From Candidatus Nomurabacteria bacterium RIFCSPHIGHO2_01_FULL_40_20 (GTDB taxonomy: Bacteria > Patescibacteriota > Minisyncoccia > Phycocordibacterales > UBA9973): a stretch of DNA of 64,000 nt. The notes beneath the pieces are model-generated. The model saw only the letters and a list, made by a program, of their open reading frames with translations. It was not told the origin of the DNA and made no database searches. Position numbers and translations under genes: made by a program. Positions 27,819 through 58,962 of the stretch are shown here, one piece after another. Location: assembly GCA_001786835.1 (NCBI GenBank), contig MFTO01000013.1, positions 1,002 to 65,001 of the forward strand. The letters run 5' to 3'. Position 1 is the first letter of the stretch; each line of letters begins with the position of its first letter.

Positions 27819-27937
27819 AAAAAATTGCTGTGCCCGTCCGTAGCTTTAGCGCAGGAGGGTAATAACGTGGAAACGCATAAAAATACTATAATCTAAAACT
27901 GTAAAAACTGCCACTCAACAATAATCAACAATAAATA

Positions 27938-27971
27938 TGACACAAATTCTGCATAGGCAGAAAGTATGTCA
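27938..27971. repeat. Palindrome IR(a): TGACACAAATTCTGC-ATAG-GCAGAAAGTATGTCA (15-4-15, imperfect), directly 3' of the paralog-1 stop and about 40 nt upstream of the trmD -10
   Basis: Read directly; it is related to IR(b) and IR(c). Confidence 0.8.
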
Positions 27972-27975
27972 TTAT

Positions 27976-28455
27976 CTATATTTTGTATGGCTTTGCTAAT
28001 TTAAATGTTTTGATGCAATCTTTCAACCTTATCTCATCCAAATATTTCAAAAAATCTTTCGGCAAGGGTGATGGTCCGACCCAAACACTTTTTTGAATCA
28101 TAATGTAACTAAATTTTTTCAAATGAAAACGAAACCACTCTCTTTCAGCTTTTTGAACTACTGGTATATCAAACATAACTATGAGATTTTTAGACAAATC
28201 AACCGTTGTTGGTCTTGAAAAAGATTTCAATGAATCTTCTTTTCTCTTGAGATACTTTTTACCGTTAGCGGTTATTATAAAGCCATTTAATTCTTTCTTA
28301 ATTAAATCATTTCGAGCCAAGCGGTCAGCACTAGAGCGCAGACTTCTCCTTGAAAAACTATTAAAACGAGGAATGCCGAAAAGGTTAACGGGTACACCTT
28401 TATACTTTATTTCTGTATTCCAAAGTTCTTTTAAAATTTCTTCCACCATAGACAT
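27976..28455 (-). CDS. Winged-helix plus PaaX-middle-domain/Cas2-like protein, paralog 1. The track start is 28488 (GTG inside a palindrome), but the likely start is ATG at about 28455 (MSMVEEIL...).
   Basis: The C-terminal half (LIVMFDIPVVQKAEREWFRFHLKKFSYIMIQKSVWVGPSPLP) resembles E. coli PaaX (WLLLL...VKKQLIWQGFGALAPSLMASP) and the Cas2 beta-alpha-beta core (YDV...QNSVFEC). The N-terminal half is wHTH-like. Its paralog is at 52547..53035. Confidence 0.6.
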   Translation of the reverse strand: MSMVEEILKELWNTEIKYKGVPVNLFGIPRFNSFSRRSLRSSADRLARNDLIKKELNGFIITANGKKYLKRKEDSLKSFSRPTTVDLSKNLIVMFDIPVVQKAEREWFRFHLKKFSYIMIQKSVWVGPSPLPKDFLKYLDEIRLKDCIKTFKLAKPYKI

Positions 28456-28482: not shown

Positions 28483-28516
28483 TGACACAAATTCTGCATA
28501 GGCAGAACTTGTGTCA
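28483..28516. repeat. Palindrome IR(b): TGACACAAATTCTGC-ATAG-GCAGAACTTGTGTCA, overlapping the -35 region of the paralog-1 promoter (-10 TATACT at 28463-28468, then a leaderless ATG)
   Basis: Read directly. Confidence 0.8.
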
Positions 28517-29350
28517 TTAAAGATATTTCTTTTTATCCCTTTTAGTCATATATTTTTGACGATCAAACCTAGGTATATTCATCTCGTCTAGGGTTTTGCG
28601 CATTTTTTGGATATCTTCTAAATTTATACCGAATTCACCACTACCGCTTTTACTATACCGATTTTCAACACCAGCATATCCTTCTCTGTCTTTGTAATAA
28701 TCAGACTTAATAGTTGCTGCTGACTCAACTTTGATTATTCTTTTTGCTGTATTTTCTTTTGCTCCCATTGCTTGCATTGCAATCATCCTTTGAAAGGCTT
28801 TATTGGTGGCAACCTTGGTTTTCATTGTTTGGATAATAGACCTCACTCCACTTTGTATTGACTTGCCAAAGAGAACAACAATCATTCCAAGTTCGGTAAT
28901 TGTTAATGTATCGTATATATTACTAAAATCACCGCCTATATTATTTGAAATAGCTATGGAAAGATTAACAATCCCATCAGAAACTGGACCGTAATTTAAG
29001 AAGTCGGCTGCTAGTCCAGCGGCAATGAGACCCTTAATAATCGCCCCTTTCACATATTTGCTAGGGCGAGTAAGGTTTTCTTTGATATGCTTTTTGAGAT
29101 TTTCTTTTTCAACGTCATATTCGGTCTTGCCACCTTTTTTTAATTCGCCGGTATCTGGATTGGTATCTTTTAAATACGGACGTTTTTGCATTTCACTTTT
29201 AATATCAAATATTTCCGTAGCAAGTTCAGAATTCTTTTCCGTTATTTCAATACCGTAAAGTACAGAATTGGCATCGTCAAAATTGAGTGTTTTCTCTAAC
29301 CGCATCCTGTCCTCTTTTGAACCCATAGGTATAAAATTTTCGTTTGTCAT
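28517..29350 (-). CDS. Hypothetical protein with a central hydrophobic/Gly-rich segment (gene B of the palindrome-flanked island)
   Basis: A 277-aa ORF with no recognised domain and a hydrophobic stretch IIKGLIAAGLAADFLNYGPVSDGIVNLSIAISNNIGG.... Confidence 0.4.
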   Translation of the reverse strand: MTNENFIPMGSKEDRMRLEKTLNFDDANSVLYGIEITEKNSELATEIFDIKSEMQKRPYLKDTNPDTGELKKGGKTEYDVEKENLKKHIKENLTRPSKYVKGAIIKGLIAAGLAADFLNYGPVSDGIVNLSIAISNNIGGDFSNIYDTLTITELGMIVVLFGKSIQSGVRSIIQTMKTKVATNKAFQRMIAMQAMGAKENTAKRIIKVESAATIKSDYYKDREGYAGVENRYSKSGSGEFGINLEDIQKMRKTLDEMNIPRFDRQKYMTKRDKKKYL

Positions 29351-29598: not shown

Positions 29599-29642
29599 AT
29601 CAATGACACAAATTCTGCCTAGGCAGAATATGTGTCATTGAT
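29599..29642. repeat. Palindrome IR(c): ATCAATGACACAAATTCTGC-CTAG-GCAGAATATGTGTCATTGAT (20-4-20), upstream of the small-ORF/gene-B promoter
   Basis: Read directly. Confidence 0.8.
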
Positions 29643-30524: not shown

Positions 30525-31451
30525 CTACTCGGATTGCATGCCGTAGCCAGAGGACTGTTCTCCATACCCATTTACTTTCTTAAATCCTTTTACCGTCTTC
30601 TGCCCTTCTACAGAATATTGTCCGGGAACATCATAAAAACCTTTTACGCTTTTTTGTCCTTCGACTTCATTGAAACCCTTTACATCATACTGTCCGTCCA
30701 CAGCATTGAAACCTTTTACACTATATTGACCAGAAACTTCATTAAATCCTTGAACATTATAAAATCCGGGAACTTCATTGAATCCCTTTATTTCATTAAA
30801 TCCGGTTACAACATAGAACCCAGTTACTTCATTGAAGCCGTTTACACTATAAAATCCGGGCACTTCAGTAAAGCCAACCACGGGATAACTGCCAATAACA
30901 TTGTAAAATCCGGTTACTTCGTTTTGTCCTATAACAGTATAAAATCCGGGAACAGTAATATCTCCATCCACAGGGTAACTGCCAGGAACAGTGATACTTC
31001 CGGGTACAGTGATATTTCCATTTACATTGTAATGACCAACAACCGTCTTACTACCCGGAACTATATAACTAGCATTCACGCTATATCCTCCAGGAATCGT
31101 ATAGCTTCCCGGAATAATATAAAAACCGTTTATCGCAATCATACCTGGTACTGTAATATTTCCGGGAATAATATAATGCGCATTTACAGCATAACTGCCG
31201 GGAACAAGGTACTGGCCGTTGATACTGTAAAAACCTGGAACAGGATAAAAGGCATAAATGTAATAAAATCCAGGTATTCCATAATCCGCATCAACTCCAT
31301 AAAATCCTGGCGTGCCATAACCATAACAGTCGCAGGAGTAATCATAAAAACACCCGCACGCTTCCGCTTTCGGCGCAAAGAGAGCAAAAGACACAAAGAC
31401 CATAAGGCCTATAACTGCCAATATCATTATATTTGACTTTTTTAATTTCAC
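30525..31451 (-). CDS. Secreted Cys/Tyr/Gly-rich protein with about 45 tandem hexapeptide repeats (consensus x-x-x-V-x-G)
   Basis: A signal peptide, then ACGCFYDYSCDCYGYG, then a run of HYIIPG NITVPG ... FNEVTG FYVVTG FNEIKG FNEVPG ... QKTVKG. The underlying DNA has 18-bp periodicity. Confidence 0.6.
   Translation of the reverse strand: MKLKKSNIMILAVIGLMVFVSFALFAPKAEACGCFYDYSCDCYGYGTPGFYGVDADYGIPGFYYIYAFYPVPGFYSINGQYLVPGSYAVNAHYIIPGNITVPGMIAINGFYIIPGSYTIPGGYSVNASYIVPGSKTVVGHYNVNGNITVPGSITVPGSYPVDGDITVPGFYTVIGQNEVTGFYNVIGSYPVVGFTEVPGFYSVNGFNEVTGFYVVTGFNEIKGFNEVPGFYNVQGFNEVSGQYSVKGFNAVDGQYDVKGFNEVEGQKSVKGFYDVPGQYSVEGQKTVKGFKKVNGYGEQSSGYGMQSE
30560..31300. repeat. Coding tandem repeat with 18-bp periodicity (hexapeptide units) inside the 30525..31451 CDS
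   Basis: The protein shows about 45 consecutive xxxVxG units. Confidence 0.7.
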
Positions 31452-36002: not shown

Positions 36003-36029
36003 CCCCTTTAGTATAGCAAAAATCGTAAG

Positions 36030-36093
36030 TTAAAATCTATTCTCTTATTCGCACGAATTAGAGAAGGTGGTCAGCTCTAGAGTTAGCTCTAGA
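36030..36093. repeat. Dispersed intergenic repeat, copy 1. It contains a 12-2-12 palindrome TTCTCTTATTCG-CA-CGAATTAGAGAA and a tandem AGCTCTAGAGTT hairpin, located upstream (on the minus strand) of the Nudix gene's -10.
   Basis: Read directly. Related copies are at 36646-36672, 36974-37030 and 39707-39740, and the AGCTCTAGAG unit alone at 58927-58952. Confidence 0.8.
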
Positions 36094-36094
36094 G

Positions 36095-36619
36095 TTATAA
36101 TTTCTCTTTTTTCATATCCACTTGCCAAATACCCATGAGAATTGAACTCATGACAAAAACCTCAGTAACTATGCCGGGATATGAAACCATAACAATACTG
36201 TATACAAACCACAAACCGGAGCCAACAAGCGAGAAAATTCTAATCAAAAAAGGATTGTCTCTCCATCTAGCGTAAGTACCCACAACAATCCCAAAAAATG
36301 GAAGAAGGCTAATCAACCCCTGCCAGGACAAAGAGAGAAGAACTCCTGCAAAAAGTATAAAAACAACAACCCACCACGGCGAGGATGCCCAACGTTTCTT
36401 ATCTTTCTTTTCAAATACAAAATTGCGCACTCCAGCAACAATGTTCATGGTAGCTCCAGTAAAAGCACCGAGCATTGCAAAGTGCACGGTAAAGAAAATT
36501 GTCGAGAACATCTGCTTTTTGAGTATTTGCGTTCTCGTTTTCCCTTGAAAGGAGAGAATAATGAAAACAAGGCCGATAAATCCTAAGCCTTGAGTAATCC
36601 AAAATGTCATGTCCCCCAT
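36095..36619 (-). CDS. Hypothetical 5-6 TM membrane protein (YgjV/PnuC-like topology; the family call is weak)
   Basis: Hydrophobic helices throughout. It sits in a cluster of nucleotide-pyrophosphatase genes. Confidence 0.4.
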   Translation of the reverse strand: MGDMTFWITQGLGFIGLVFIILSFQGKTRTQILKKQMFSTIFFTVHFAMLGAFTGATMNIVAGVRNFVFEKKDKKRWASSPWWVVVFILFAGVLLSLSWQGLISLLPFFGIVVGTYARWRDNPFLIRIFSLVGSGLWFVYSIVMVSYPGIVTEVFVMSSILMGIWQVDMKKEKL

Positions 36620-36690
36620 CGTTTTAGTATAGCAAAATACTTAAGATTAAAAACCATTCTCTTATTCGTGCGAATTAGAGAAGGTTAGGG

Positions 36691-36957
36691 TCAAAGAGAG
36701 TCAATGATCTCTTTGACGAGCGAATTGGGTTTAGAAAATAAACTATAAAATTTTACCAAGCTTACTTGGTCCGCTTCTATAATCTCCGCATTAGATAAAA
36801 TCAAGAGGTGTTTTGAGGTGGATTTAAAAGAAAGCTTTATGGCATCCGCAACCTCTCCCACTGACTGCTCTTTGTTTTTCTTCAAAAATTTTAAAATAGC
36901 TAGCCGGCGTCGATTGGCAAACGCTTTGAATATTTTTTCTAAATCTTTTTCTTGCAT
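36691..36957 (-). CDS. ArsR/SmtB-family winged-helix transcriptional regulator
   Basis: FKAFANRRRLAILKFLKK..EQSVGEVADAIKLSFKSTSKHLLILSNAEII is the ArsR HTH signature. A 12-2-12 palindrome lies upstream. Confidence 0.7.
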   Translation of the reverse strand: MQEKDLEKIFKAFANRRRLAILKFLKKNKEQSVGEVADAIKLSFKSTSKHLLILSNAEIIEADQVSLVKFYSLFSKPNSLVKEIIDSL

Positions 36958-36973
36958 AAATCTTATTTTACCA

Positions 36974-37030
36974 CCATTCTCTTATTCGTGCGAATTAGAG
37001 AAGGTGGTCAGCTCTAGAGTTAGCTCTAGA
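36974..37030. repeat. Dispersed intergenic repeat, copy 3, upstream of the ArsR-family gene: TTCTCTTATTCG-TG-CGAATTAGAGAA plus AGCTCTAGAGTTAGCTCTAGAGCT
   Basis: Read directly. Confidence 0.8.
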
Positions 37031-37568
37031 GCTGGTACTCCCAGCCGGGTTGCCAGGATTTGGTTTTGCGCCAGTCTTCGGCTAGGGCTTGTTCCCAAGT
37101 TTTACCTTTAAGTAGCACGTCTAGGGATAATTGCGGAGCTTTGTGAGCAACTATAGCCACATGTTTGCCGTCATAATTTTCTTTTAGAAATTTCAAAAAG
37201 TCTGCCATTCTTGCCTTCACATCTTCATAACTTTCCCCGCCCGGAAATTTATTGTAAATACATTCCTCTTCTTGCATCGGCTCCACCACCAAAGACGACG
37301 CGCCATTTAATTTTCCATAGTCGCATTCACGCAGTCTCTTGTCAGAGATAATTTCATATTTGTCTCCAAACGCAAGATGCGCCGAATCCACCGCCCGTTT
37401 CAAATCCGAGCAAAAAACCACATCAAAATTTTTATCAGCTACAAGATCGCCGAGTTCTTTTGATTGTTTTATTCCTAACTCCGACAACTCCCCCGGCAAT
37501 CCGCCAGTAGAAATATGCTCTTCATTGTCCGTCGTCGTCCCGTGTACAAAATATGTGATTTGAATCAT
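37026..37568 (-). CDS. Histidine-phosphatase superfamily protein (phosphoglycerate-mutase-like) with VHG replacing the canonical RHG
   Basis: IQITYFVHGTTTDN, ...FCSDLKRAVDSA... and ...IVAHKAPQ. Confidence 0.65.
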   Translation of the reverse strand: MIQITYFVHGTTTDNEEHISTGGLPGELSELGIKQSKELGDLVADKNFDVVFCSDLKRAVDSAHLAFGDKYEIISDKRLRECDYGKLNGASSLVVEPMQEEECIYNKFPGGESYEDVKARMADFLKFLKENYDGKHVAIVAHKAPQLSLDVLLKGKTWEQALAEDWRKTKSWQPGWEYQL

Positions 37569-39680: not shown

Positions 39681-39706
39681 GTCCTAAGTATAGCAAAAAC
39701 CCTAAG

Positions 39707-39740
39707 ACAAAATCTATTCTCCTATTCGTACGAATTAGAG
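39707..39740. repeat. Dispersed intergenic repeat, copy 4, upstream of the second Nudix gene: TTCTCCTATTCG-TA-CGAATTAGAGAA
   Basis: Read directly. Confidence 0.75.
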
Positions 39741-39837
39741 AAGATATTCGAGTTCTATAATTAGCTTTAGAGCTAATTCTATATAAAAAAAGAGATCGCT
39801 CGGTTATTCAACCTACTAGATCTCTGTTGTACAGAAA

Positions 39838-52212: not shown

Positions 52213-52384
52213 ATGGAAAAATATACCGCTTAAGTTGTAAACTTGCAATATATTTAAATAAGGTGTATATATGTCTTAACATACGTTCGTCGATTATTTC
52301 AAGAAACGAATGTTTCAACATCCCACAAGGTGGGACGCCCTGTTGGTAATTTGGTAATTCAGAACCAGAATTACCCCAGGAAAA

Positions 52385-52440
52385 ACACCCCCTGCAAACT
52401 AATATCAGACACACATGATTATTAGCTCTGTAGGGGCTTT
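52385..52440 (-). terminator. Probable rho-independent terminator belonging to the helicase-nuclease gene, now separated from it by the inserted paralog-2 cassette
   Basis: The minus strand reads GCCCCUACAGAG...UUUGCAGGGGGUG followed by UUUUUCC: a GC-rich stem and a U-run. Confidence 0.5.
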
Positions 52441-52441
52441 T

Positions 52442-52462
52442 TTATTTATATATCTCCGCCAT
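52442..52462. repeat. 21-bp direct repeat TTATTTATATATCTCCGCCAT, copy 1. The minus strand reads ATGGCGGAGATATATAAATAA, which equals the last 6 codons plus stop of the helicase gene.
   Basis: Identical 21-mers at 52442-52462 and 53159-53179 flank the roughly 700-bp paralog-2 cassette. Confidence 0.85.
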
Positions 52463-52469
52463 CTTATGA

Positions 52470-52505
52470 TTGTTAATTTTCCTGCGATAGCAGGAAGTTT
52501 AACAA
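52470..52505. repeat. Palindrome TTGTTAATTTTCCTGC-GATA-GCAGGAAGTTTAACAA, 3' of paralog 2
   Basis: Read directly. It shares the inner core TTCnTGC-N4-GCAnGAA with IR(a), IR(b) and IR(c), but its outer arms differ. Confidence 0.75.
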
Positions 52506-52546
52506 TTATTTTACCCACAACAAAAAATTAACTCTAGTCTATCTGT

Positions 52547-53035
52547 CTATCTTTTTCTTGTTTCAAATCCTTTTGCCAGTTTAAAGGTCTGGATATTGTC
52601 TTTGATCTTTATACGCTTGATGTAATCTAAAAAATCCCGCGGCAGTGGCGAGGGTCCAACCCAGACGCTCTTTTGAATCATCACAAAGCCAAACTTTTTC
52701 AAATGCCAGCGAAACCATTCCCTCTCCGCCTTCTTCTCTTCCGGAATATCATACATCAATAATAAATTCTTCGGCGCCTCTTTATCAAACTTATTTGAAA
52801 ATTGTTTTAAAGAATCTATTTTTCTTTCAATATATTTTCTTCCTTTGGGGGTAATCCGTAAAAAATCATTTTGCTCGTCAACAAATCCATTTTTATACAT
52901 ATAAAATAAAGTCCCTCGCAGAGACCCCTTGGAATAGTCCTTGAATTTTGGAATACCGAAAAGGTTAGTTGAAACCCCTTTGTATCTCAGTGTGGTTTTA
53001 CTTAATTCTTCTAAGATGTTATAAATCAACCCCAT
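52547..53035 (-). CDS. Winged-helix plus PaaX-middle-domain/Cas2-like protein, paralog 2
   Basis: LLMYDIPEEKKAEREWFRWHLKKFGFVMIQKSVWVGPSPLPRDF is about 70% identical to paralog 1 across the C-terminal half. A TATAAT sits 6 nt before the ATG, with a palindrome immediately upstream. Confidence 0.6.
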   Translation of the reverse strand: MGLIYNILEELSKTTLRYKGVSTNLFGIPKFKDYSKGSLRGTLFYMYKNGFVDEQNDFLRITPKGRKYIERKIDSLKQFSNKFDKEAPKNLLLMYDIPEEKKAEREWFRWHLKKFGFVMIQKSVWVGPSPLPRDFLDYIKRIKIKDNIQTFKLAKGFETRKR

Positions 53036-53050
53036 ATAAATATTATATCA

Positions 53051-53090
53051 AAATGTTAAATTCTCTGCTATCGCTAAGTATTTAACATTT
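53051..53090. repeat. Palindrome AAATGTTAAATTCTCTGC-TATC-GCTAAGTATTTAACATTT, directly upstream of the paralog-2 -10 TATAAT (53042-53047) and its leaderless ATG
   Basis: Read directly; the outer 11-bp arms are perfect. Confidence 0.75.
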
Positions 53091-53158
53091 AATTGTATTT
53101 ATTTAATTGCTATATTACTCTAAAAGTATTCATAACCCGAAAGTCTTATTTGCAAGAA

Positions 53159-53179
53159 TTATTTATATATCTCCGCCAT
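53159..53179. repeat. 21-bp direct repeat TTATTTATATATCTCCGCCAT, copy 2 (the authentic 3' end of the helicase-nuclease ORF)
   Basis: See copy 1. Confidence 0.85.
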
Positions 53180-57826: not shown

Positions 57827-57912
57827 GCGGAGGCGGAGAGATTCGGACTCTCGAGAGCTTTCACCCTACACGCTTTCCAAGCGTGAGCACTAGACCGCTA
57901 TGCGACGCCTCC
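57827..57912 (-). tRNA. tRNA-Ser (anticodon GGA), type II with a long variable arm
   Basis: The reverse complement GGAGGCGTCGCATAGCGGTCTAGTGCTCACGCTTGGAAAGCGTG...GAGAGTCCGAATCTCTCCGCCTCCG folds with anticodon loop TTGGAAA and T-loop TCCGAAT. Confidence 0.8.
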
Positions 57913-58149
57913 GTTTATTAATTTCTTAAAAGCTTCCCCTCCTTTATAATCTTTTATTTGCTTTTCACGCAACCAAGCTGATTTCTTATCTTCGAACTGT
58001 TCGTTATGAACTACTTTCCAAGGAATACCAACCTTTGTTGATTTATTCCTACCAGAGTTGTGACTTTTTATCCTCTGGTTTAAGTCTGAAGTATATCCTA
58101 TATAATACTTATTATTACTTCCACTTCTTAATATGTAAACGTAATACAT
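57898..58149 (-). CDS. GIY-YIG nuclease-domain small protein (UPF0213-like). Its last about 5 codons overlap the 5' end of tRNA-Ser(GGA).
   Basis: YYVYILRSGSNNKYYIGYTSDLNQRIKSHN is the GIY-YIG motif. Confidence 0.6.
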   Translation of the reverse strand: MYYVYILRSGSNNKYYIGYTSDLNQRIKSHNSGRNKSTKVGIPWKVVHNEQFEDKKSAWLREKQIKDYKGGEAFKKLINGGVA

Positions 58150-58926: not shown

Positions 58927-58962
58927 CGAGCTCTAGAGTTAGCTCTAGAGCTAAATACGTAA

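Follow-up and report, generated by a model that had tools for sequence, protein, structure and literature searches.

A short PaaX-like gene between two related palindromes in a Candidatus Nomurabacteria genome: probably an autoregulated transcription factor rather than an autonomous mobile element

In the genome of Candidatus Nomurabacteria bacterium RIFCSPHIGHO2_01_FULL_40_20, the gene of a UvrD-type helicase is followed by a compact cassette, which lies within the 64,000-nt stretch of contig MFTO01000013.1 analyzed here (the window). The main traits of the cassette are (i) a single gene encoding a 162-residue protein with winged-helix and Cas2-like parts, (ii) two related palindromes, one on either side of this gene, (iii) an extended -10 promoter element directly before the start codon, and (iv) an exact 21-bp direct repeat that encloses the other three. 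The original prediction for this locus had described each of these features, and the analysis bears out its account of them: the repeat, the identity of one copy with the in-frame end of the helicase gene, the terminator-like hairpin next to the other copy, the discrete unit of one gene and two palindromes, the leaderless-looking promoter, the nature of the protein, and the lack of a recognizable transposase or integrase. Its interpretation of the unit as a mobile element fared differently, as set out below. The coordinates of the features are collected in Table 1 along with the layout of the family clades.

Table 1. Features of the cassette and its surroundings in the window, and arrangement of the family clades
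Feature	Position	Strand	Description
PaaX-like protein gene, 162 aa	52547..53035	(-)	winged helix ~1-80; Cas2-like PaaX_M ~90-155; assigned to clade A
Upstream palindrome (proposed operator)	53051..53090		AAATGTTAAATACTTAGC-GATA-GCAGAGAATTTAACATTT on gene strand; center 37 nt before ATG
Downstream palindrome (proposed second operator, roadblock or loop anchor)	52466..52509		ATAATTGTTAAACTTCCTGC-TATC-GCAGGAAAATTAACAATCAT on gene strand; starts 37 nt past stop
Extended -10 element TGATATAAT	53042..53050	(-)	perfect; six nt before ATG; no Shine-Dalgarno sequence
21-bp repeat, helicase copy	53159..53179	(-)	last six codons plus stop, ATGGCGGAGATATATAAATAA on minus strand
21-bp repeat, noncoding copy	52442..52462	(-)	3 nt past downstream palindrome
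Terminator-like hairpin	52381..52443	(-)	directly after noncoding repeat copy; A-run before, U-run after
Spacer, 68 bp	53091..53158	(-)	helicase stop to upstream palindrome; z = -0.31, no significant structure
UvrD-type helicase fused to PD-(D/E)XK nuclease, 986 aa	53159..56119	(-)	UvrD-helicase, UvrD_C, PDDEXK_1 domains
Second paralog, clade D	27976..28455	(-)	52.5% identical; inserted in rpsP-KH-trmD gene row
Paralog 2 upstream palindrome	28483..28517		TGACACAAGTTCTGC-CTAT-GCAGAATTTGTGTCA
Paralog 2 downstream palindrome	27937..27971		4 nt after stop
Third paralog-2 palindrome	29602..29639		12 nt upstream of TTGACT-17-TACACT promoter
Clade A			helicase > gene > rhodanese / PheS; arm TTGTTAnA; center GATA upstream, TATC downstream
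Clade B			TsaD < gene > < GDH; arm TACTTA
Clade D (window paralog 2)			rpsP-KH, gene, trmD; arm TGACACA
Clades C, E, F, G			other fixed contexts; various arms

The encoded protein is matched best by Pfam PF20803 (PaaX_M, "PaaX protein central Cas2-like domain") over residues ~91-154, with E = 3.3e-15 and 56.4 bits against a cutoff of 24. Two Cas2 models also score above their cutoffs, namely Pfam PF09827 (E = 2e-6, 28.2 bits versus 23.8) and TIGR01573 (31.4 bits versus 24.5), and these matches are confined to approximately residues 91-143, corresponding to strand 1, helix 1, and strand 2. Winged-helix matches of the N-terminal part in Pfam are weak, and a sequence search of solved structures likewise returned weak winged-helix matches and nothing stronger. 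Residues 33-148 are collinear with positions 31-146 of the 279-position NCBIfam PaaX model TIGR02277, the score of 28.7 bits falling far under the equivalog cutoff of 264.55 because the C-terminal half of PaaX is missing. Correspondingly, the protein stops at residue 162, and no Pfam match to the PaaX_C effector (phenylacetyl-CoA) domain was found. In an AlphaFold model of moderate confidence (predicted local distance difference test, pLDDT, of 63.6), for which 30 family members were used, a winged helix leads through a long linker helix to a domain of beta-alpha-beta-beta-alpha-beta topology. Among PDB entries, the model matches E. coli PaaX (8a39) best and the PaaX-like Rv0674 next, ahead of many Cas2 chains; the latter match the C-terminal domain alone, with template modeling (TM) scores of about 0.45-0.59 normalized to Cas2 length. 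An invariant aspartate, Asp96, closes the first strand, where Cas2 has its catalytic Asp. Judging from its sequence, the protein is the N-terminal half to two-thirds of a PaaX-type repressor without the ligand-binding domain. The affinity to both Cas2 and PaaX that had been predicted is thus present in the models, with PaaX_M and PaaX 8a39 as the best matches and the ligand domain absent.

The likeness to Cas2/VapD proteins comprises a C-terminal domain above the Cas2 model cutoffs, a model that superposes on Cas2 chains, and an Asp at the catalytic position. The protein differs from Cas2 in its fusion to a winged helix, in having PaaX_M as its best match, and in its gene context. The 64-kb window holds no CRISPR array, and no cas1 or other cas gene was identified among the annotated neighbors in more than 80 related loci; an association with CRISPR was rejected on these grounds. 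NCBI names several family members (P0001, P0009, P0071, and P0096) "CRISPR-associated endonuclease Cas2," and their JGI name is "DNA-binding transcriptional regulator PaaX." Since the gene context lacks cas1 and a CRISPR array, the Cas2 name is unsupported and most likely a misannotation.

The protein belongs to a large family. A word-indexed search returns more than 1500 relatives, nearly all of them from Nomurabacteria, Paceibacterota, and other Patescibacteria, and an exhaustive profile search yields 3030 clusters at 50% identity (882 below 1e-10), most of 155-185 aa. The best relatives from other species are 60-68% identical, 68% being the nearest among 5.8 billion proteins. Species-representative genomes carry two to four divergent paralogs on different contigs. 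Across 83 distinct cassettes, the C-terminal domain is near-invariant (consensus PKNLIVMFDIPETKKAEREWLRWHLKKFNYSMIQKSVWVGPSPLP; mean pairwise identity 73%), and the N-terminal domain is variable (45%). The literature searched on PaaX with Cas2, on Cas2-like winged-helix proteins with palindromes, and on PaaX in Patescibacteria does not describe this family or its layout of bracketing operators.

Clustering of neighbor genes and a protein tree resolve the family into clades, each with its own outer palindrome arm and a genomic position conserved over many species. The residues of the putative recognition helix also follow the clades (SLRGT in A, SLSGT in B, LRSS in D), and clades A and B co-occur in one genome (L023 with L028; L031 with L035). 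The neighbors in the 80+ related loci form conserved clusters, of which the annotated members are housekeeping genes: helicase, TerC, rhodanese, PheS, and GyrB; or TsaD and GDH; or rpsP and trmD. No paa catabolic genes were found among the family neighbors. The tight linkage of clade, arm, and neighborhood over many species indicates old, vertically inherited paralogs. The window protein is assigned to clade A by its SLRGT residues, TGTTAAA arms, GATA and TATC centers, and helicase context, the UvrD-PD-(D/E)XK helicase being the conserved left neighbor of clade-A cassettes. Two variants of the layout were seen on the side: seven clade F loci (L072, L073, L075, L078, L081, L083, and L087, context c28/c66 ... 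c32/c33) have no recognizable flanking palindrome, and L095 and L097 carry two family genes in tandem, head to tail.

In the window, the downstream palindrome has 20-nt arms that are 85% complementary and the upstream palindrome has 14-nt arms that are 93% complementary, the two being related to each other over 37 nt at 73%. A palindrome of 34-40 bp stands on both sides of the gene in every relative first inspected; under a strict criterion, 62 of 83 distinct cassettes have one on at least one side and 34 on both. The palindromes of the second paralog in the window form such a pair, TGACACAAnTTCTGC-CTAT-GCAGAAnTTGTGTCA. Each half-site is composed of (i) an inner block, TCTGC, that adjoins the 4-nt center and is conserved family-wide (TCTGC-N4-GCAGA), (ii) a variable linker of ~5 nt, and (iii) a clade-specific outer block of 5-8 nt, such as TTGTTAnA, TACTTA, TGACACA, or GGTAGCAAA. 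With block centers ~10 bp apart, all four blocks of a complete site would lie on the same face of the helix. Between the two sites that flank one gene, positions -15 to -11 and -3 to -1 are near-invariant, and the linker (-10 to -6) shows 107 one-sided changes versus 32 compensated ones. The mostly uncompensated linker changes fit recognition by a protein and not selection for a hairpin stem, and hairpin formation as the main role of the palindromes was rejected on their account.

The upstream palindrome holds a fixed relation to the start codon, its center lying either 35-38 or 44-47 nt before the ATG, two modes that are one helical turn apart. The motif TGnTAnnnT follows it in 27 of 44 cases, and in clade A the palindrome is directly followed by TTTG(G/A/C)TATA(C/A)T, with the ATG about seven nt further on. 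None of 80 family genes is preceded by a Shine-Dalgarno-like sequence, and in 69 of the 80 a TAnnnT lies 4-9 nt ahead of the start codon. A leaderless mRNA is therefore probable. The main basis for this call is the conserved extended -10 element immediately in front of the ATG, since the Shine-Dalgarno control set, in which starts were taken from the longest open reading frame (ORF), is weak.

The downstream palindrome lies 0-70 nt past the stop codon. It occupies this place even where the next gene is convergent, as in clade B, and therefore cannot be the operator of a downstream promoter. Additional sites occur as well. Between helicase and cassette, a third clade-A palindrome precedes a secreted-protein gene in L048 and a pilin-like gene in L167. 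In the window, the promoter beside the third paralog-2 palindrome stands before a pair of unannotated ORFs (53 and 277 aa), which are located between that paralog and the KH gene. Third sites before accessory genes fit a local transcription factor with a small regulon, which probably controls those genes too. An inversion switch, for which the inverted centers of clade A (GATA and TATC) could have spoken, was rejected, as helicase and family gene point the same way in all clade-A loci seen.

On this evidence, the cassette probably encodes a PaaX-like transcription factor that regulates its own synthesis and has an operator on each side of its gene. It is best seen as an old, repeatedly lost resident of the helicase-rhodanese junction in its clade and not as an autonomous transposon. 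The binding and autoregulation steps of this reading are predicted from the sequence, the structure model, and the analogy with PaaX. A protein dimer would bind the 34-40-bp palindrome, with the variable winged helices reading the clade-specific outer arms and the near-invariant Cas2-like core, which would serve for dimerization as in PaaX, sitting over and perhaps reading the inner block. The upstream site would take the -35 place beside the extended -10 element of the leaderless mRNA, such that binding would regulate, and probably repress, synthesis of the protein itself. The downstream site would be a second operator, acting as a roadblock terminator, an insulator, or a loop anchor.

PaaX is composed of a winged helix, a dimerization motif, and a ligand-binding C-terminal domain (PMC9493321). 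It binds TGATTC-N27-GAATCA and represses its own promoter by steric block of RNA polymerase (PMC9493321), and a site at the -35 place of the gene's own promoter is the arrangement at which this repression takes place. The family shares with PaaX (Pfam PaaX / PaaX_M / PaaX_C; PDB 8a39 and 3l09), the phenylacetyl-CoA-responsive repressor of the paa genes, a winged helix and a Cas2-like middle domain that are collinear over ~146 residues. Judged by sequence, the two would also share a long palindromic operator with wide half-site spacing (here, e.g., TGTTAAA-N20-TTTAACA) and a site that overlaps its own promoter, consistent with autorepression. In contrast to PaaX, the family lacks the C-terminal ligand-binding domain and nearby paa genes, has a putative second operator after the gene and an invariant inner block, and occurs as several orthogonal paralogs per genome in Patescibacteria, among housekeeping genes.

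Two further groups of known systems invite comparison. The lac, gal, and deo repressors have operators on both sides of a gene or promoter and form loops. As in these systems, two proposed cognate operators lie a few hundred base pairs apart in the cassette, one at the promoter and one downstream; unlike in them, the second comes only after the stop codon that ends the regulator gene itself. Integron attC cassettes, Acinetobacter pdif modules, and IS200/IS605 elements resemble the family in placing a single gene between two similar imperfect palindromes, with a third palindrome at a few loci. The family differs from them in that no integrase, Xer-type site, or HUH transposase was noticed; in sites that co-vary with the encoded DNA-binding domain; in a fixed upstream promoter geometry; in a conserved position per clade; and in showing a target duplication at the window locus only.

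The feature that most resembles a mark of mobility is the 21-bp repeat, TTATTTATATATCTCCGCCAT. Its two copies are the only matches in the window with up to three mismatches allowed, and its chance expectation is zero (0 matches in 100 shuffles); with one mismatch tolerated, it extends to 24 nt. The helicase copy is the in-frame end (...CKMAEIYK*) of the helicase ORF. On the minus strand, the noncoding copy leads into a hairpin of -21.5 kcal/mol (z = -2.25) with an A-run 5′ and GUGUUUUU 3′. The same junctions are present in all ten other contigs that encode the identical protein, taken from ENA k141 assemblies, JGI, and Logan, and both repeat copies are present in nine of them, the tenth ending before the second copy. 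Recurrence of both copies and the same junctions in nine of ten contigs from these sources indicates that the repeat is real and no assembly artifact. As every one of these contigs has the cassette and shares at least 99.9% identity with the window, they are uninformative on polymorphism. No known RNA families or tRNAs were found around the cassette.

Of the 31 family cassettes that have both palindromes, just one, the helicase-linked cassette of the window, is flanked by a long direct repeat. In the other 30, such repeats do not exceed 11 nt, against a maximum of 15 nt in the mismatched-flank controls, and target duplication as a family trait was rejected because these cassettes are at background level. 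Moreover, 68 bp separate the upstream palindrome from the repeat copy beyond it, against 3 bp at the downstream palindrome, an asymmetry which implies that the palindromes are not the termini of an element and the repeats not its symmetric ends. The noncoding 21-mer matches the helicase codons of its own species and those of no relative, which suggests that the duplication arose within the lineage and comparatively recently. The repeat is best read as the one-off, species-specific scar of a single, comparatively recent local event and not as the mark of a mobile element. Three origins are possible: a true integration with a 21-bp duplication or att core; a re-insertion by recombination, with a homologous left crossover and an illegitimate right joint past the palindrome; or a repair event beside the fragile palindrome, in which the helicase end served as template for a short patch.

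Occurrence of the cassette after the helicase gene is patchy. In metagenome helicase relatives with enough downstream sequence, the gene follows immediately in 9 of 73, and L167 has it ~800 bp further on. In the cassette-free relatives, other genes come after the helicase stop; often it is the rhodanese gene or a small antisense gene, at a distance of 5-60 bp. Cassette-bearing and cassette-free loci are interspersed on a (noisy) neighbor-joining tree of the helicase. One cassette-free locus, L125, is sister to a cassette-bearing one and retains a degenerate solo palindrome, TTGTTAGATTTTCTGC-TATC-GCAGAGAATGAAAAAC, at 1555-1590, immediately past the helicase stop. With no regulator gene beside it, this palindrome resembles what a lost cassette would leave behind. 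Clade-A-type cassettes also occur in another context, in L025 and L037. Given the coherence of clade, context, and site in clade A, repeated loss is the simplest account, and the cassette may occasionally have been regained laterally. Relatives without the cassette thus exist, as the original prediction had proposed to look for, and make up most of the 73. The exact empty junction of helicase stop and terminator (TGCAAA + 21-mer + AAAAGCCCC; sequence ...TGCAAAATGGCGGAGATATATAAATAAAAAAGCCCC) is, however, absent from the metagenome and genome contig collections searched. With the closest helicase relative in the metagenome collection only ~60% identical, no recent empty site is recoverable. A small, conserved opposite-strand gene (...FYLGWLDNGP...) stands just downstream of many clade-A cassettes (L015 6560-6660, L143, L148, L042, L039, and others) and also after many cassette-free helicase genes; the window lacks it and has the 21-mer copy and the hairpin at this place instead.

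Several points weigh against a resident regulator. A perfect 21-bp repeat followed by a terminator resembles an insertion at the junction of helicase stop and terminator, which vertical residence alone does not predict. The strong conservation of the Cas2-like domain, including the Cas2-aligned Asp, is left unexplained by a regulatory role, and the regular second site after the stop codon, even between the convergent genes of clade B, is not obviously explained by regulation. The neighbor-joining tree places the window protein on a long branch just outside the main clade-A group. Finally, the moderate pLDDT of the AlphaFold model goes with weak Foldseek E-values, the best being 2.5e-3. The original prediction had suggested that the unit could be a minimal mobile element with a 21-bp target duplication or attL/attR cores, in which case the 696 bp between the repeats would have integrated at the end of the helicase gene and the winged-helix, Cas2-like protein would recognize or cleave the sites. 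The exactness of the repeat, the hairpin directly after its distal copy, the absence of the cassette from most helicase relatives and its patchiness on their tree, and the clade-A-type cassettes outside the helicase context (L025 and L037) speak for such an event, and additional genes enclosed by a third palindrome give the impression of a cassette array, which keeps the capture of cassettes alive at low probability. Integration of this kind is nevertheless distinctly unlikely. The original prediction had called for other copies with different flanks and 21-bp repeats; many relatives with different flanks do exist, but the 30 other two-palindrome cassettes show flanking repeats at background and none of the 21-bp type. 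The ends, at 68 and 3 bp from the palindromes, are asymmetric and undefined; the single ORF between the repeats has no transposase or integrase domain; near-identical copies were not found, the in-window paralog having other arms at 52.5% identity; no copy turned up in the viral contigs searched; the exact empty junction is missing from both collections; and all ten conspecific contigs have the cassette. The conserved context of each protein clade over many species points the same way. A recombinational re-acquisition, which concerns the origin of the repeat only and is compatible with the regulator, is unlikely too but has some real chance of being correct. A cassette-free lineage would have taken up DNA of a relative through a homologous left crossover in the helicase gene and an illegitimate right joint past the palindrome, 21 bp before the recipient's stop codon, thereby doubling the helicase end. 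In its favor, the right edge of the insert lies 3 nt past a long palindrome, a likely breakage point, with the left edge undefined; the repeat has no counterpart at other loci, as an accident would lead one to expect; repeated loss in the clade supplies cassette-free recipients; and the distal copy has the species' own codons and no relative's. It requires, however, a loss followed by a gain, no cassette-free conspecific was found among the ten contigs or in the junction search of the two collections, and cassette-free relatives mostly have the rhodanese gene and not a terminator right after the helicase stop.

The remaining alternatives concern the palindromes and the Cas2-like domain. A function of the palindromes chiefly as hairpins of RNA or single-stranded DNA (for instance terminators or insulators), alike by descent or gene conversion and not bound by the protein, is very unlikely even though their RNA folds are stable (-17.0 kcal/mol, z = -6.2; -12.5 kcal/mol, z = -4.7), the downstream copy keeps to its place past the stop even between convergent genes, and the window downstream palindrome has a symmetric, pairing-preserving CCTGC...GCAGG change. 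Under a leaderless mRNA the upstream copy is not transcribed. Where the two copies differ in the middle of the stem, the change mostly affects one arm only and disrupts pairing, and the downstream palindrome is not consistently followed by a U-run. In addition, the outer arms vary in step with the recognition residues of the winged helix, and the distance from upstream palindrome to start codon is fixed, with a 10-nt step between its modes. The least probable of all is an active nuclease, in which the protein would attack the palindromes through its Cas2-like domain as a sequence-directed DNase or RNase, in a self-targeting or homing-like manner, or would be a VapD-related single-gene toxin. 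The Cas2 models above cutoff (PF09827 and TIGR01573), the position of the invariant Asp96, and the very strong conservation of the C-terminal domain agree with a nuclease; however, the same domain of PaaX is described as a dimerization module with no known nuclease activity (PMC9493321), the genes are stably inherited beside their own intact sites, and no partner antitoxin gene accompanies them. With a PaaX_M match far stronger than that to Cas2 and with neither cas1 nor a CRISPR array, the DNA-cleaving or integrase role that had been suggested finds little support. Co-variation of the sites with the cassette's own DNA-binding domain points to self-recognition, and no IntI or Xer genes beside cassettes turned up in the general neighbor-gene survey. 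It is highly improbable that the unit is a self-recognizing DNA module whose protein holds or cuts the flanking sites and brings about excision, re-insertion, or conversion into cassette-free alleles. If it were, the 21-bp duplication, the patchy presence, the clade-A cassettes in foreign contexts, and the captured genes would be traces of its activity, and the family would represent a new recombination or homing system built on a Cas2-fold protein without Cas1.

Recombinase genes were seen near two cassettes. In L029 (2-1552), a serine recombinase (resolvase) lies directly upstream of a clade-B cassette, replacing TsaD, and in L013 (10384-10746) another lies 4 kb from the cassette; these genes may be signs of local rearrangement. 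Just beyond gyrB is a gene for a ParE toxin, preceded by a small ORF (L001, 12053-12322).

The window also contains repeats unrelated to the cassette. An intergenic family with a unit of ~57 nt, ATTCTCTTATTCG..CGAATTAGAGAAGGTGGTCAGCTCTAGAGTTAGCTCTAGAG, and a palindrome of its own has copies at 36010-36097, 36627-36683, 36947-37034, 39687-39775, and 58929-58953. It separates small accessory genes (NUDIX-like, an 88-aa ORF, and phosphatase-like, as guessed from translations), and its second half recurs directly after tRNA-Ser. The end of this tRNA gene (57827-57912, called by ARAGORN only) is overlapped by an 83-aa ORF at 57898-58149(-), of which the counterpart in L003 and L004 is annotated as GIY-YIG. 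A motif of ~25 nt, TTTAGTATAGCAAAA, stands beside gene starts six times (12688, 35997, 37562, 37977, 39229, and 39674) and is probably a shared promoter or leaderless start signal. An 18-nt periodic repeat at 30724-31020, corresponding to a six-residue protein repeat, lies inside a 308-aa ORF (30525..31451(-)) upstream of rpsP.

The analysis defines a large, strongly conserved family of short PaaX-type proteins with several orthogonal versions per genome and corrects for it the widespread database name "CRISPR-associated endonuclease Cas2." It also illustrates that an exact 21-bp repeat on both flanks, tempting as it is to read as evidence of mobility, can stem from a single accident. Knowledge of gene regulation in the tiny-genome Patescibacteria is almost nil. 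The candidate site of each version can be read from the DNA on either side of its gene, which provides ready protein-site pairs and, with them, material to test how a winged helix together with a Cas2-fold core reads DNA. If the downstream site is a protein roadblock or insulator, it would be a notable way to separate transcription units in very compact genomes.

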